From a virus: 10,955 bases of DNA. The stretch lies in the UHGV virus genome UHGV-2150205, one strand, 5' to 3'. The notes beneath the pieces are model-generated. The model was not told where the DNA came from. It searched no databases and worked only from the letters and a program-made list of their open reading frames with translations. Each line of letters starts with the position of its first letter. Position 1 is the first letter of the stretch. The translations under genes were made by a program, and so were the position numbers. This document shows, in pieces, positions 3,556 through 10,955 of this stretch.

Positions 3556-3807
3556 ATGGAATTTCATGAAAGTGCGATTTGTGATTTTCGCGCTAACGCA
3601 AATTCAGTAAAACCACAGCCAATTGCAGTTCTTTTTAAAACAATGGGTGCGTGGGCTGTTTTATGCTTCGCCTCTGATGACACTGACGCAAGAATGGCAA
3701 TAGGCCAAGAGATGGAGATGGACCCGACAAACGATGAATTCATAATTTATGGCGCTCCATCTAATTACTTACTTGATACCTGCAACATTTACAACAAGGC
3801 TGCCTGA
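3556..3807 (+). CDS. Hypothetical protein, 83 aa, first gene after N.
   Basis: GAGGTGAG RBS before the ATG at 3556; the frame is open and tightly packed after N. No family recognised. Confidence 0.6.
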   Translation: MEFHESAICDFRANANSVKPQPIAVLFKTMGAWAVLCFASDDTDARMAIGQEMEMDPTNDEFIIYGAPSNYLLDTCNIYNKAA

Positions 3808-3846
3808 TGGTGGCCTTTATTTTTGGCGTAAACAACAGAGGCTAAC

Positions 3847-4426: not shown

Positions 4427-4450
4427 GCCCTCCAGTGTGAGGGCCTTTTT
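4427..4450 (+). terminator. Rho-independent terminator (GCCCTC-cagtgt-GAGGGC followed by CTTTTTAT), tL-like and presumably read through under N antitermination.
   Basis: Perfect 6-bp GC-rich stem followed by a T-tract. Confidence 0.65.
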
Positions 4451-4516
4451 ATATGCATACCAATAACGCTTCACTCGAGGCGTTTTCGTTATGCAATCAA
4501 ACAGAAGGAGCATCCT

Positions 4517-8257: not shown

Positions 8258-9026
8258 TTATCAGGCACTGCGTGAGTTAGCAAAACAGGCAACACAAGGA
8301 GAATGGGTTGCATTTATTTCGACGGGTACTGGTACGTATGCGGTGCATACGCCCGGTGATAAACGATGTGAAGACGTTATCAAATGGACCGGCTTTGATG
8401 GACAGAAAAATGCAGAGAACAACGCTCGTTATATCGCAGCTTTCAACCCAGAAGTAGTGCAGGCGTTGCTGGACGAGCTGGAAGGCAAAGACAAACTGAT
8501 TGCCGAGCTTGGAAAACAATGCGCCGAATGGGAGCGAAAAGCATTAAGTAACTTTGAAGAGTGTGCTGCGATGGCTGAACGTATCGAAGAGATGCAGACA
8601 AAATCTGCACCAGATTCGTTTGGCATCATCGGTGAAAATATTCGAACACAGGATAATCGAATAGCATCAGACCCTATGTTTTGTGTGTATCAAAAGCGCG
8701 AAATCGTTGTTGATGCTGATTATGACTATGACCGGATTGTCTGGGTTGATGAAGATGGCAATGAAGCCAATAAACGCCAAAGTCGTCGTCTCGAACTACT
8801 TCATGAAAACTTTCGGGAGCCACCAGAAAAATGGCGGCGCGTTGCTGTGAAAGATATTGATGAATTCGTGACCTGCTGTTTCACCGAGCAGGGTTGTAAA
8901 GACTACCTGGCAGCCAATGGTCACAATCTTCGCTTGCCTTTTATATATGTAAAAAGCGGTTTCAGAAACGCTGAATATATCGGCATCAGAAACTGGCTTG
9001 CTGGCATTCGCATCAAAGGAGAGTGA
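8244..9026 (+). CDS. Ead/Ea22-like prophage protein, about 260 aa from a GTG start (MSKIDYQALRELAKQATQGEW...).
   Basis: AAGGAGG RBS 6 nt before the GTG at 8244. The N-terminal IDYQALRELAKQATQGEW and NNARYIAAFNPEVVQALLDELE resemble Ea22-like proteins as I recall them. The track ORF starts at an upstream ATG (8202) inside the previous gene. Confidence 0.6.
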   Translation: MSKIDYQALRELAKQATQGEWVAFISTGTGTYAVHTPGDKRCEDVIKWTGFDGQKNAENNARYIAAFNPEVVQALLDELEGKDKLIAELGKQCAEWERKALSNFEECAAMAERIEEMQTKSAPDSFGIIGENIRTQDNRIASDPMFCVYQKREIVVDADYDYDRIVWVDEDGNEANKRQSRRLELLHENFREPPEKWRRVAVKDIDEFVTCCFTEQGCKDYLAANGHNLRLPFIYVKSGFRNAEYIGIRNWLAGIRIKGE

Positions 9027-9027
9027 T

Positions 9028-9237
9028 ATGGCTATCGCTGCAAGTTACACCATGCATCTCTATTGTGACTGCCTCCAGTGTACAGATGGCAAATATAAGT
9101 CGCCAGACTTCGGTGAGTATATAGGTACGTCATGGGCTGGCTGTGCAAAAGAGGCGCGCAAGGATGGCTGGCGAATAAGCAAAGACAAAACACGTACTTT
9201 TGCGCCCGGGCATAAAGTTTTGAGGATTAACACATGA
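9028..9237 (+). CDS. Small Cys-rich hypothetical protein, 69 aa (MAIAASYTMHLYCDCLQCTDGKY...).
   Basis: AGGAG RBS before the ATG at 9028. Contains a CDCLQC motif and a further Cys. Confidence 0.55.
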   Translation: MAIAASYTMHLYCDCLQCTDGKYKSPDFGEYIGTSWAGCAKEARKDGWRISKDKTRTFAPGHKVLRINT

Positions 9238-10052
9238 CCACTATTACCAAAGAACGTATTGAATTGTTCATTAAAAATCCGCTTGAAAACGGGCTTGCCC
9301 GTGGCGAACAAATGGAACTGGCGCAGATTGCACTGGCCTCACTGGCAGCAGAGCCGATGGCGTGGAAATGGCGGCTTACTAGTCTTTTTGACGGTGTGCA
9401 GATTGGCCCGTGGCGGGTGTGTCTTGCGCCACTATCACCCGGCAAGGGGGATGGGTGCAAGACAGAAGCTATTCCACTTTACACCGCCCCGCCAGTACCG
9501 TTAGTACCTGCTGCATTACCTGAGAACGACGATGAGGACGGGCATGACATTGATTATCTTGAGCCATCTGAAGTTTACGCGCTTGGGCGAACATCTGGCT
9601 GGAACGCCTGCCGCGCTGCCATGCTTCATAGTGCCGAACCTGTAAGCCAAACTTACAACTTGCCACAAACGGAGTTTGAACAGGTTGCTGACCTCTACAA
9701 AATGCAATTTGATGACGGTCGCACTTGTGCCTTTCACACTGATGCGCAAAAGGCTGCTCAATGGCTTCAGACGTGCGACGGAAACAGAGTTCAGGAATAC
9801 GTGAAGCTGGAACGGTTGCAGAATGCGCTGTCTGGCAACTATCCGGTAACTCCGGATGGTTGGATAAGCTGTAGTGAGCGAATGCCAGATGATGGTCAGC
9901 ACGTAATTATTTTATGTGATGGCGCATTCGTTCTTTATGCGCAATATCGAGACGGTGAGTTTTTTGATGTTGTCCGCAATGGTGAGGAGTTCTTCGAAAC
10001 GCAGAGCCGCAATGTAACCCACTGGATGCCGCTACCAGAACCGCCGCTCTGA
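9234..10052 (+). CDS. DUF551-domain protein, 272 aa.
   Basis: The C-terminal region (DGWISCSERMPDDGQHVIIL...FVLYAQYRDGEFF...VTHWMPLPEPP) is characteristic of phage DUF551 proteins. ATGA overlap with the upstream gene. Confidence 0.7.
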   Translation: MTTITKERIELFIKNPLENGLARGEQMELAQIALASLAAEPMAWKWRLTSLFDGVQIGPWRVCLAPLSPGKGDGCKTEAIPLYTAPPVPLVPAALPENDDEDGHDIDYLEPSEVYALGRTSGWNACRAAMLHSAEPVSQTYNLPQTEFEQVADLYKMQFDDGRTCAFHTDAQKAAQWLQTCDGNRVQEYVKLERLQNALSGNYPVTPDGWISCSERMPDDGQHVIILCDGAFVLYAQYRDGEFFDVVRNGEEFFETQSRNVTHWMPLPEPPL

Positions 10053-10073
10053 TAGCGAATCTTATACATATCT

Positions 10074-10101
10074 TTTACATCAACAATATATTGTTAATTT
10101 C
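10074..10101 (+). promoter_or_regulatory. Putative internal promoter (-35 TTTACA 10074-10079, -10 TAATTT 10096-10101) with a perfect 14-bp palindrome AACAATATATTGTT (10082-10095) in the spacer.
   Basis: The palindrome is directly visible; the hexamers were assigned by eye. It sits in an AT-rich 96-nt intergenic gap upstream of the zinc-ribbon gene. Confidence 0.35.
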
Positions 10102-10148
10102 CAATCAATGTTACGTTGTCATCTCACTCATGCTTTGGAGGTAGTGAT

Positions 10149-10328
10149 ATGTCTTGTCCAAAATGCGGTTCTGGAAATATTGCAAAAGAAAAAACAAGGC
10201 GTGGATGGTCTGGAGATTATGTGTGCAGTGATTGCGGATACAACAACTCTAAAGACGCATTTGGAATGCGCGGTAAAAACGAGTTTAGTAAAAATAATAA
10301 AGAACGCGGAAGCAACGAAAAAAGCTAA
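10149..10328 (+). CDS. Small zinc-ribbon protein, 59 aa (MSCPKCGSGNIAKEKTRRGWSGDYVCSDCGYNN...), with two CxxC pairs and a Lys/Asn-rich tail.
   Basis: GGAGG RBS 7 nt before the ATG at 10149. The gene is AT-rich and bracketed by a promoter-like element and a strong terminator. Confidence 0.6.
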   Translation: MSCPKCGSGNIAKEKTRRGWSGDYVCSDCGYNNSKDAFGMRGKNEFSKNNKERGSNEKS

Positions 10329-10393
10329 ATTATTTATTCATATATGAAAACAATGTAACCAATATTCGAATTGAAGAACTGAAAGAACACTAA

Positions 10394-10418
10394 GCCGCCT
10401 GATGGCGGTTTTTTATTG
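10394..10418 (+). terminator. Rho-independent terminator (GCCGCC-tgat-GGCGGT followed by TTTTTTATT).
   Basis: GC-rich stem followed by a T-tract immediately after the zinc-ribbon gene. Confidence 0.8.
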
Positions 10419-10428
10419 GAGACAAGAA

Positions 10429-10773
10429 ATGTCAGATTTGGCTATGAAGATTTTGAAATGGCAATCGACTGGCGATGTCGGCATCAGTAGCGCAACTCTT
10501 GCCTCAATCGCATGTGGACTGAAAAAGAATATCTATGGTCATGGCTTCGGTGCTCCACATGACGCAGCCGATTTCCGGCGATGCGTTGCACTTGTTGAGC
10601 AGATTCCAGAAATCAGAGATTCATTCGACAATGTTGCAAAGCGCGTTCCGGCATTCAAAGGCATCCTCAACGAATGGGATTCTCTCGTTGCTCTGTTGAA
10701 GTCTGAAATGAAGATACACGGAAACAAAGCACCAGAGACTTACAGAAGAATCAGCGAGCTACGCAAGGACTAA
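10429..10773 (+). CDS. Hypothetical protein, 114 aa (MSDLAMKILKWQSTGDVGISSATLASIACGL...).
   Basis: GGAG RBS before the ATG at 10429, open frame. The track ORF starts upstream inside the terminator. Confidence 0.6.
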   Translation: MSDLAMKILKWQSTGDVGISSATLASIACGLKKNIYGHGFGAPHDAADFRRCVALVEQIPEIRDSFDNVAKRVPAFKGILNEWDSLVALLKSEMKIHGNKAPETYRRISELRKD

Positions 10774-10897
10774 CCACAGTCTCACACTCGATGAGGCCTG
10801 TTCATTTCTCAAGATATCCAGACCTACCATTGCTGCATCAATGCGGCTTTTTATTGCCTGATTTGCAGGTTCGATTCCATATTCGGAGATAGCACTC

Positions 10898-10955
10898 ATG
10901 CAACACGAACTACAACCTGATTCACTGGTTGATTTGAAATTCATCATGGCCGATA
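10898..10955 (+). CDS. Start of a hypothetical gene (MQHELQPDSLVDLKFIMAD...), truncated by the window end.
   Basis: ATG with GGAG 9 nt upstream; only 19 codons are visible. Confidence 0.3.
   Translation, partial: MQHELQPDSLVDLKFIMAD

Follow-up and report, generated by a model that had tools for sequence, protein, structure and literature searches.

A zinc-ribbon gene at the xis end of a lambdoid early-left operon corresponds to phage P22 eaG and is followed by the lambda t'I terminator

Organization of the locus

The window, by which the whole analysed stretch of 10,955 nucleotides from UHGV virus genome UHGV-2150205 is meant, carries every large ORF between position 1554 and its end on the + strand, the last of these being a TorI-like xis, and the same gene order was found on the annotated maps of P22, HK620, Huey and 434. 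The gene considered here, eaG, stands second from the end of the early-left (pL) operon, ahead of xis. Its place after a DUF551 gene, which the earlier note had given, is borne out by both the window layout and the annotated phage maps. Further terminator-like hairpins within this operon were located at 3796, 4427 and 4465. Features of the locus are as follows.

9234-10052, + strand: DUF551-domain gene, P22 EaA-like, 272 aa (PF04448, E=2.2e-21; TGA at 10050-10052)
10020-10354, + strand: eaG-specific mosaic cassette, from the 3' end of the DUF551 gene through the 96-nt spacer and eaG to nt 26 of the 3' UTR
10053-10148, + strand: AT-rich spacer, the 96-nt eaG 5' leader, constant in length in 81/83 close homologues
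10063-10092, + strand: weak sigma-70-like match TATACA-18-TATATT, 9/12 (mirror match on the - strand, 10114-10085)
10082-10095, no strand: perfect 14-bp palindrome AACAATATATTGTT, a lineage-specific variant
10098-10141, + strand: candidate leader hairpin, UUUCCAA (10098-10104) with UUGGAGG (10135-10141), the 3' arm holding the Shine-Dalgarno (SD) sequence GGAGG at 10137-10141
10149-10328, + strand: eaG, 59-aa C4 zinc ribbon with GWSGDY motif and Lys/Asn-rich disordered tail
10337-10348, no strand: 12-bp palindrome TTCATATATGAA in the eaG 3' UTR, kept by most relatives
10355-10391, + strand: relic of the lambda orf55 3' end (…VTNIRIEELKEH), now non-coding 3' UTR, identical to lambda and 434 but for one C->T at 10391
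10392-10414, + strand: lambda-type t'I intrinsic terminator, stem AAGCCGCC/GGCGGTTT, loop TGAT, T6 (hairpin possible on the - strand too)
10429-10773, + strand: ORF114, 114 aa, phrog_1229, of the phage 434/HK022 ORF114 module
10832-10852, + strand: a further terminator, T'I of the 434 type, with one stem position substituted (434 record: 'terminator PMID:6305007')
10853-10865, + strand: HK620-type cII-binding site in the pI promoter (TTGCCTGATTTGC), located by alignment with the cII site and 'phage integration' promoter of the HK620 annotation
10898-10955, + strand: start of the TorI-like excisionase gene (MQHELQPDSLVDLKFIMAD…), which runs off the window end

Identity and conservation of eaG

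Sequence comparison identifies this gene for a small zinc ribbon as eaG, catalogued earlier in phage P22, and the finding is to that extent largely ordinary. The ORF extends from an ATG at 10149 to a TAA at 10326-10328 behind a GGAGG ribosome-binding site and encodes a 59-aa product, MSCPKCGSGNIAKEKTRRGWSGDYVCSDCGYNNSKDAFGMRGKNEFSKNNKERGSNEKS. In tblastn searches this protein was 83.1% identical to P22 EaG over 59/59 aa (E=2e-24), and identities of 83-86% over the full 59 residues were noted for P22 eaG, HK620 hkaD, ST64T eag, Sf101 and the HK629 'Eag protein'. The profile phrog_2945 matched with E=1.7e-26 over profile positions 10-67 of 68, and the NCBI entry 'Eag protein [Escherichia coli]', found on 201 contigs, was 100% identical. 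The gene was present in 327 of 5426 complete E. coli genomes (about 6%) and in the classic model phages P22, HK620, L, ST64T and Sf101. E. coli E4 (NZ_CP104516) carries a cassette identical to that of the window.

The zinc ribbon with a Lys/Asn-rich tail described in the earlier note was recovered as a real, conserved gene, with the correction that the cysteines (C3, C6, C26 and C29) are spaced CxxC-X19-CxxC rather than CxxC-X17-CxxC. The signature CPxCGS … GWSGDYxC..CGY is present, and residues C3, C6, C26, C29, G19, W20, G22 and Y24 were invariant in family alignments. An AlphaFold2 model (overall pLDDT 68.5) placed a beta-hairpin at residues 11-26 and gave the tail a pLDDT of about 50. The ratio pN/pS was 0.24 in the ribbon and 0.36 overall, and the four cysteines and GWSGDY persisted in homologues from different genomic contexts with as little as 37% identity. 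The ribbon pN/pS and the persistence of the motif identify eaG as a real coding gene. The ORF was intact with a consensus GGAGG in 76 of the 83 close loci. An alternative 79-aa frame at 10108-10347, annotated in phage Huey, was rejected because the zinc-ribbon frame is conserved as protein down to 37% identity.

Window EaG differs from the common HK620/majority type by 8-10 aa (M17R, C27S, D33N, E40M, V47S, I49N, E53G and G54S) and by a few more from P22 EaG; at the nucleotide level, 10 of the changes that separate the window and majority alleles are non-synonymous and 3 are synonymous. P22 eaG, HK620 hkaD and ST64T eag come with the same 96-nt spacer, ribosome-binding site, 3' UTR and terminator, and likewise lie after a DUF551/eaA gene, near xis-int, in the pL operon. 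Compared with P22/HK620-type spacers, the window spacer carries 5 changes, of which 2 perfect the palindrome and 1 weakens pairing between SD and anti-SD. The next downstream element is ORF114 in the window, eaC in P22 and pI in HK620.

Frameshifted variants of eaG (P0015-P0017 and P0021) were found, as were, in 55 E. coli records, copies without the spacer in decayed prophages. An exhaustive HMMER search of 1.84 billion representatives yielded no more than 10 clusters at E<=1e-10, and no function could therefore be transferred from distant relatives. The single match among GTDB species representatives, on a 1.1-kb contig of a Kocuria assembly, is probably contamination.

Terminator and cassette boundaries

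The lambda t'I terminator was reportedly described by Benedik, Mascarenhas and Campbell in 1983. In the window, a canonical intrinsic terminator stands after eaG as the earlier note had said, with a stem at 10392-10411 and a T-run at 10409-10414 (RNA dG -12.9 kcal/mol, z=-4.06, 0/200 shuffles as stable). Its attribution to eaG as the gene's own terminator did not hold, since the hairpin and the preceding 37 nt are lambda orf55-3'end/t'I DNA that is common to phages without eaG. Window positions 10355-10414 were identical to lambda 29106-29165 at 59/60 positions, the same piece was present in lambda, 434 and HK022, and a longer segment, 10355-10866, was shared by HK022, 434, mEp213 and Stx phages, all of them without eaG. 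In the P22 record L06296 this sequence bears the label t'I on account of its identity to lambda 29106-29165, and BK000583 annotates the opposite strand of the hairpin as the terminator of the antisense aI RNA. The frameshifted database variant P0017 reads through the orf55 relic as …NVTNIRIEELKEHQAA. The hairpin GCCGCC-TGAT-GGCGG with T6 is the same in lambda and the window, and in both it lies upstream of the integration module; lambda t'I, however, follows orf55 and directly precedes pI, whereas that of the window follows eaG and is parted from pI by ORF114 and the second, 434-type T'I. The terminator came after eaG in 83/83 close loci, and beyond the T-run at least 6 different continuations were seen.

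Sharp limits were also noted for the roughly 335-bp mosaic cassette in which eaG travels. Per-position variability among 61 haplotypes dropped from about 0.45 to <0.05 at window position ~10020, and megablast matches began at 10014-10020 in phages with eaG as opposed to 10355 in phages without it. The final ~11 codons of the DUF551 gene (from ~10020) already belong to the conserved cassette, diversity is very low throughout, in coding and non-coding parts alike, and the lower GC content claimed in the earlier note was confirmed (0.37-0.40 across 10000-10500 compared with 0.45-0.59 upstream). Sharp as the boundaries are, the cassette takes turns with orf55 at one slot and does not look like a simple insertion.

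In divergent homologues (47-66% aa identity), the gene is followed by ninB or by a LexA-box gene. Of these, 4 were scanned and none showed a terminator directly after the gene; two (L112 and L146) had one weak terminator match each about 120-150 nt further on, at chance frequency. The arrangement that the earlier note had named as speaking against an autonomous unit was thereby found, in the form of homologues that belong to a contiguous operon of the nin type, or precede a LexA-box gene, and have no terminator directly after them.

Spacer, palindrome and promoter match

The AT-rich gap of 96 nt at 10053-10148, directly after the DUF551 TGA, and the perfect 14-bp palindrome inside it (AACAATATATTGTT, 10082-10095) were both present as reported in the earlier note. 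The two exceptions in length among the 83 close homologues, L056/L057, have unrelated upstream sequence. At the palindrome site, AACAATATATTGTT was seen in 4/83 loci, AACAATCTATTGTT in 2/83 and AGCAATCTATTGTT in 77/83, the last of which pairs at 5/7 palindrome positions. The window holds 3 perfect palindromes of 14 bp compared with 0.8 expected, and a post hoc test puts the chance of one within the 96-nt gap, given the composition of that gap, at about 0.011. Both perfecting substitutions fall on the only two mismatched pairs, for which the chance is about 1e-3 as a rough and likewise post hoc estimate; in the window lineage, the palindrome-completing substitutions also create TATATT.

The claim that the palindrome controls a promoter fared poorly, given the rarity of the perfect form and a promoter match that is allele-dependent, at chance level and absent in P22. 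The + strand sigma-70 match is the sole one in the spacer, depends on a window-specific C->A change and scores exactly the scan minimum of 9/12, and in the P22 spacer the match is missing, the -10 position reading TCTATT without the key A. The scan returned 2 matches compared with 3.0 expected in 9000-10955 and 10 compared with 18 expected in the whole window, although consensus scans of this kind may miss weak or non-canonical promoters. A conserved antisense promoter was likewise not found. Judged from these comparisons, neither the perfect palindrome nor the weak promoter match is a conserved control element, both being peculiar to this allele.

Early operons are tightly packed, and a non-coding gap of 96 nt is of unusual length for one. 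All divergent homologues retain an upstream gap, of 87-147 nt, and for this reason the eaG leader likely holds some regulatory content. The window and P22 spacers gave RNA stability z-scores of +0.26 and +0.79, and Rfam at E<=1 had no match over 9800-10955. An operator shared between the group A palindrome and the CAATA-N6-TATTG of distant leaders was considered and rejected, the 8-mer/5-bp-arm matches lying, by our own estimate, within AT-rich chance.

Predicted leader hairpin over the ribosome-binding site

In five leader types of differing sequence, the predicted minimum free energy (MFE) hairpin places the SD in its 3' arm. The probability that the SD pairs with upstream bases was 0.99 for the P22/HK620 allele (reached by 2.5% of shuffles) and 0.99-1.00 for the L112, L146, L109 and P22 types (reached by 0-2.5% of shuffles), compared with 0.07 for the window allele, in which the candidate hairpin is the MFE structure but is unstable (z=+0.37). 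The equivalents of the window anti-SD at 10098-10104 are AUCUCCAA in P22 and CCCUCCGG in the L112 type. The shuffle baseline for occlusion of the SD was high (0.5-0.7), and covariation in the hairpin was thin (1 double change). These predictions are consistent with a leader hairpin that, by pairing with the ribosome-binding site, may damp eaG translation in most relatives.

Searches for function

No paper on EaG function or transcription was found in the published literature, nor was a published transcriptome covering an eaG prophage. Membership in the Lar/RalR family was rejected as sub-threshold in both Pfam and NCBIfam for EaG of the window, P22, HK620 and ten divergent relatives. Thus, window EaG scored 21.1 bits and relatives 20-23 bits against PF14354 Lar_restr_allev (cut-off 28.6 bits), and the score against TIGR03655 was 17.1 (cut-off 39.6). 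Rac YdaE did not match EaG, a PDB profile search returned only generic zinc knuckles (best E=0.022) and Foldseek of the AlphaFold2 model against viral structures gave nothing at E<=1e-3. PADLOC defence models were likewise set aside, the only matches being spurious ones to the Cas12 zinc-finger region (E about 5e-3). At eaG, no RalA-like antisense RNA was found and Rfam gave no match. As our best guess, EaG may serve host takeover or anti-defence as a small accessory factor with nucleic acid or protein as its binding partner.

Discussion

The locus is probably best explained by eaG being an accessory early gene of P22-like and lambdoid phages, expressed from pL through antitermination, while t'I insulates pI-xis-int; the terminator is that of lambda and the palindrome and promoter match belong to the allele. 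The pL operon, including eaG, would be transcribed by antitermination-modified RNA polymerase during infection or induction. Because t'I and the second, 434-type T'I (10832-10852) would stop unmodified polymerase, transcription into xis and int would have to start at pL and be antiterminated, or start at the cII-dependent pI promoter. The hairpins, by their T-rich tails, may double as joints for module exchange.

An alternative concerned with function, and compatible with transcription from pL, is that EaG is a distant relative of Lar (RalR) of the Rac prophage, an effector whose mRNA would be silenced by an occluding leader hairpin until a signal or processing opens it. Rac Lar (RalR) has two reported roles, in the alleviation of restriction and as a toxic DNase. 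Like EaG, it is a zinc ribbon of about 60 aa near the xis-int end of the early-left operon, in the order recT-ralR-rcbA-xisR-intR, and is weakly similar in sequence. PF14354 recurred as a near-top match (21-23 bits, E about 1e-4) when the EaG proteins of the window, P22 and HK620 were searched, and was also precomputed for many cluster members, but every score fell under the curated cut-offs and generic zinc-ribbon models scored equally. In BLASTP, EaG and RalR were 28% identical over 54 aa, including a C-terminal N-K-x-x-x-N, although the pairwise E-value was 0.04 and the Trp of the RalR W-N-K-R stretch is missing in EaG. The structure searches gave generic ribbons only, and the lack of an identified antisense RNA partner also speaks against this relationship. 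Hairpins occluding the SD, predicted in 5/5 leader types, would suit such gating; the low pairing probability of the window allele and the high shuffle baseline do not. Taken together, a translationally gated, Lar/RalR-like effector is unlikely.

Morons are autonomous promoter-gene-terminator inserts. Read as one, eaG would have a sigma-70 promoter in the spacer under control of a palindrome-binding protein and a monocistronic transcript ending at the hairpin, with expression from the prophage possible. The earlier note had proposed this pattern, of which the lower GC, the discrete cassette with sharp mosaic boundaries and the terminator after the gene stood, and the promoter and a private terminator did not. 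Lambdoid morons are likewise small accessory genes of lower GC in a discrete cassette with an intrinsic terminator at the end. One example is HK97 gp15, cited in PMC10883804. Every close homologue of eaG ends at the terminator, as a moron would, the long upstream gap is conserved family-wide, and the window-lineage substitutions, in completing the palindrome, produced a -10-like element in a promoter-like layout. Against this, eaG differs from lambdoid morons in that its promoter is not supported, its terminator is part of a neighbouring shared module, it is co-oriented within an antiterminated early operon and it alternates with orf55 and does not look like a clean insertion. The near absence of the perfect palindrome from the close loci, a promoter match at or below chance frequency that P22 does not have, the presence of orf55/t'I in phages without eaG and the contiguous operons of divergent homologues all argue in the same direction. 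The prophage-expressed systems of P22 that PMC10883804 lists are c2, gtrABC, sieA and sieB, a list restricted to superinfection-interference systems, and eaG is not among them. We therefore regard an autonomous moron as quite unlikely.

On a further reading that we hold to be distinctly unlikely, EaG-family leaders (87-147 nt, of group-specific sequence) would bury the ribbon's ribosome-binding site and so gate, after transcription, a possibly toxic zinc-ribbon effector, Lar/RalR-like or otherwise, and the window lineage would have been rewired by loss of anti-SD pairing and gain of the palindrome and -10-like TATATT. That eaG is a decaying passenger, its ORF conserved merely through recent spread of the cassette and its protein and flanking DNA functionless, is very improbable, since the low diversity across the cassette, the excess of non-synonymous changes in the window allele, the frameshifted variants and the spacer-less copies in decayed prophages are outweighed by the low pN/pS, the motif kept across genomic contexts and the largely intact ORF with its GGAGG.

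With eaG taken as an ordinary accessory gene of the pL operon, the result is one of housekeeping, in that it prevents a known P22 gene and the known lambda t'I from being taken for a new regulatory unit and shows the palindrome to be peculiar to the window allele. If the occluding leader is real, it would illustrate in compact form how a phage can gate the translation of an accessory gene. The hairpin tails of t'I mark precise module joints, and terminators may thus double as recombination boundaries in lambdoid mosaics.

Features of the eaG locus

The window has the organization of a lambdoid early-left operon, with all large ORFs from 1554 onward on the + strand and a TorI-like excisionase gene (start 10898) as the last gene of the operon. 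The features listed here surround eaG, the gene for a 59-aa C4 zinc-ribbon protein.

Features of the eaG locus
9234-10052, +, DUF551-domain gene (PF04448, E=2.2e-21; stop codon 10050-10052)
10053-10148, 96-nt spacer between the DUF551 gene and eaG
10082-10095, perfect 14-bp palindrome AACAATATATTGTT inside the spacer
10137-10141, +, Shine-Dalgarno GGAGG of eaG, 7 nt ahead of the ATG
10149-10328, +, eaG ORF (ATG at 10149; 59 codons)
10392-10414, +, hairpin and T-run 3' of eaG

An earlier note had described this locus as a moron-like unit, and the sequence features on which it relied were confirmed: the 96-nt gap, perfect palindrome, small zinc-ribbon ORF and hairpin with T-run were each present, as was the lower GC content (0.37–0.40 as opposed to 0.45–0.59 upstream). 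The sole slip was in the cysteine spacing, which is CxxC-X19-CxxC rather than CxxC-X17-CxxC. As RNA, the hairpin at 10392-10414 had a predicted energy of -12.9 kcal/mol (z=-4.06), and 0 of 200 shuffles were equally stable. A second AT-rich palindrome, TTCATATATGAA, centred like the upstream one on ATATAT, was noted in the eaG 3' UTR (10337-10348), where it is kept by most relatives and replaced in some by TTCATATATTAA.

Identity, coding status and distribution of eaG

Database comparisons showed the gene to be the already known eaG of P22. EaG matched 40 phage-genome records by tblastn, 39 of them at 81–86% identity over at least 80% of the protein and most of these over all 59 residues; among the records were P22 eaG, HK620 hkaD (“Eag protein”), ST64T eag, phage L, Sf101 and HK629. 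The identical protein in NCBI is “Eag protein [Escherichia coli]”, from 201 contigs. In P22 records, eaG lies between eaA (DUF551) and eaC-xis-int and is labelled “EaG(?)” and “putative”. Of 5426 complete E. coli genomes, 327 carried the eaG unit, and four of these had the window allele (at least 99% identity). The family is very small: HMMER, run exhaustively against 1.84 billion representatives, gave 10 clusters at E<=1e-10.

By sequence criteria, eaG is a genuine coding gene: the ribbon has a pN/pS of 0.24 and the tail one of 0.42, and the signature (CPxCGS…GWSGDYxC..CGY) is retained in homologues down to 37% identity. Phage Huey is annotated with an overlapping 79-aa frame (window 10108-10347, +) in place of eaG; for these reasons, that annotation is a mis-call. 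Four database variants (P0015, P0017, P0021 and P0022) are chimeras in which a frameshift joins the two frames, and one of the four translates through the eaG 3' UTR into a relic of orf55 (…NVTNIRIEELKEHQAA). In 55 of 329 E. coli records, eaG lacked the spacer and ribosome-binding site. These records are remnants of decayed prophages; in the one inspected (E. coli MB1, L153 2412-3185), a deletion joins eaG to a truncated late-region metallophosphoesterase gene beside a pseudogenised integrase.

Protein function was a matter of inference. EaG reached none of the curated family cut-offs (Lar_restr_allev, 21–23 bits against 28.6; TIGR03655, 17.1 against 39.6), and the scores of generic ribbon models (TFIIB, HVO_2753) equalled that of Lar_restr_allev. 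The best PHROG, 2945 (E=1.7e-26), is listed as of unknown function. Pairwise comparison with RalR (Lar) of Rac gave E=0.04, and the place of RalR in that prophage (recT-ralR-rcbA-xisR-intR) is comparable to that of eaG. An AF2 model (pLDDT 68.5) predicted a zinc ribbon with a β-hairpin, a short helix and a disordered tail; fold and PDB searches returned generic ribbons only, PADLOC and Rfam searches nothing useful for eaG, and a literature search no publication on EaG.

Origin of the terminator and boundaries of the cassette

Window 10355-10414 was identical at 59 of 60 positions to the 3' end of lambda orf55 with its hairpin, and the segment is also present in phage 434, where the stem has one additional substitution. 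P22 record L06296 names the hairpin t'I “from identity to the t'I sequence of bacteriophage lambda” (lambda 29106-29165), and in BK000583 its opposite strand is annotated as terminating the antisense aI RNA. By megablast, 10355-10866 (t'I and ORF114) was common to HK022, 434, mEp213, mEp043 and many Stx phages, all without eaG, whereas matches to eaG phages began at 10014-10020. The eaG-specific DNA therefore extends roughly from 10020 to 10354 and holds no terminator, and the eaG 3' UTR is an orf55 relic. Thus, the strong terminator of the earlier note is a genuine t'I hairpin but belongs to an adjoining, widely shared module rather than to eaG.

The boundaries of the cassette were evident among 83 close eaG loci. 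Variability, about 0.45 farther upstream, fell below 0.05 at window ~10020, in the final 11 codons of the DUF551 gene, and stayed low to the T-run, directly after which at least six different continuations occurred (ORF114 in the window, HK620-type pI with TorI, P22 eaC, lambda pI with xis, and two other genes). ORF114 (10429-10773) is flanked by lambda-type t'I (10392-10420) and 434-type T'I (10832-10852; 10832-10856 including the tail), the latter an annotated feature of the 434 record, which cites PMID 6305007 for it. Since both end in TTTTTATTG and HK620 has a hybrid joint, with the lambda-type hairpin directly followed by pI without ORF114, the sequences suggest that terminator tails are recombination joints between which modules may be gained or lost.

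Further terminator-like hairpins were noted within the operon at 3796-3817, 4427-4444 and 4465-4484, the first of which (AAGGCTGCCTGATGGTGGCCTT) has a CCTGATGG core in common with t'I. Two overlapping terminator-like hairpins (255-285) at the window's left end, 5' of the cI-like gene, enclose a perfect palindrome of 16 bp (GTGACAGCGCTGTCAC, 257-272).

Palindrome, promoter match and leader

The proposal of a palindrome-controlled promoter was not borne out. The promoter-like TATACA-18-TATATT (10063-10092) matched at 9 of 12 positions, the minimum score of the scan, and such matches were no commoner than in shuffles (2 versus 3.0 expected locally; 10 versus 18 in the whole window). The -10-like TATATT was limited to the window allele, P22 reading TCTATT at this place, and the scan found no promoter-like site in the P22 spacer; the match is therefore not a conserved promoter. 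Nor is the palindrome a conserved operator, since it was perfect in only 4 of the 83 loci (the window and L008-L010); AACAATCTATTGTT occurred in 2 and AGCAATCTATTGTT, with 5 of 7 pairs, in 77. The window contains three perfect 14-bp palindromes versus 0.8 expected, and the chance of one in the 96-nt gap, judged post hoc, was about 0.011. The two perfecting substitutions fall exactly on the only two mismatched pairs, which is mildly surprising, so that palindrome and promoter match may be a lineage-specific gain.

Five leader types, unlike one another in sequence, had predicted minimum free energy structures in which the 3' arm of a hairpin contained the Shine-Dalgarno (z-scores: L112, -2.3; L146, -4.1; L105, -2.1; L108, -3.9). 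The probability of its pairing with upstream bases was compared with 200 shuffles of each leader.

Predicted pairing of the Shine-Dalgarno with upstream bases (probability; shuffles reaching it)
L112: 1.00; 0/200
L146: 1.00; 0/200
L109: 1.00; 0/200
P22/HK620 type: 0.99; 2.5%
L107, L108: 0.94–0.95; 6%
L089: 0.74; 48%
Window type: 0.07; 93%

Covariation of the stem was thin (one double compensatory change and several wobble-preserving changes). In the window allele, C->U at 10100 weakens the stem, with which the palindrome competes. An occluding leader hairpin is a family-level lead from structure prediction and is not supported for the window allele.

Divergent homologues

Among divergent homologues (47–66% amino acid identity), all of which retain an upstream gap of 87–147 nt, ORF maps of L105 and L112 placed the gene upstream of ninB-ninE-ninG-like ORFs identified by eye; L146-type loci have the same downstream sequence, and in L089-type loci the gene precedes a promoter with a LexA-box-like sequence. 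A terminator-like hairpin directly followed the gene in none of four divergent loci scanned; L112 and L146 each gave one weak hit, at chance frequency, about 120–150 nt farther downstream, and only L112 had a 9/12 promoter match upstream. Homologues in a contiguous nin-type operon or before a LexA-box gene, with no terminator directly behind them in the four loci scanned, are the outcome that the earlier note had named as refuting its reading.

In L089 (2684-2745) and L090-L104, TTGACA-17-TACTGT lies directly 3' of the EaG-like gene and overlaps a near-consensus LexA box (TACTGTATATAAATACAGT); downstream is a gene of about 84 codons (MSKDSDYLIIYRGEIHH…), the whole resembling an SOS-controlled unit. 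A mini-ORF of 20 codons is conserved in the upstream “leader” of L089-L104 (~2423-2485), reading MPKSAAERKAALTQPFQFSAA in most of these loci and MAKSAAERKAALTQHFQFSAA in L089. It carries a GGAGG of its own, and its start overlaps the stop of the gene before it in TGATG. In L105, L112 and L146 (2680-2708), a promoter-like TTGATT-17-CATAAT, conserved in three leader groups, covers the stop codon of the eaG homologues; an imperfect GC hairpin and an ORF judged ninB-like by eye lie downstream of it. The gene before the nin-region EaG-like gene has an apparent DUF551-type C-terminus (L107 2361-2412, …THWMPLPAAPQQ; L105 ORF 1607-2413); if this is truly DUF551-type, the DUF551-eaG pairing would predate a move between operons.

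Interpretation

The moron interpretation was partly supported. A discrete low-GC accessory cassette ending at a genuine terminator held; the palindrome-controlled promoter and own terminator were not supported, and neither was autonomy. Both eaG and lambda-type t'I were already known. The locus is best explained as the known P22 gene, probably transcribed within the antiterminated pL operon, with lambda-type t'I a putative insulator of pI-xis-int that would double as a module joint.
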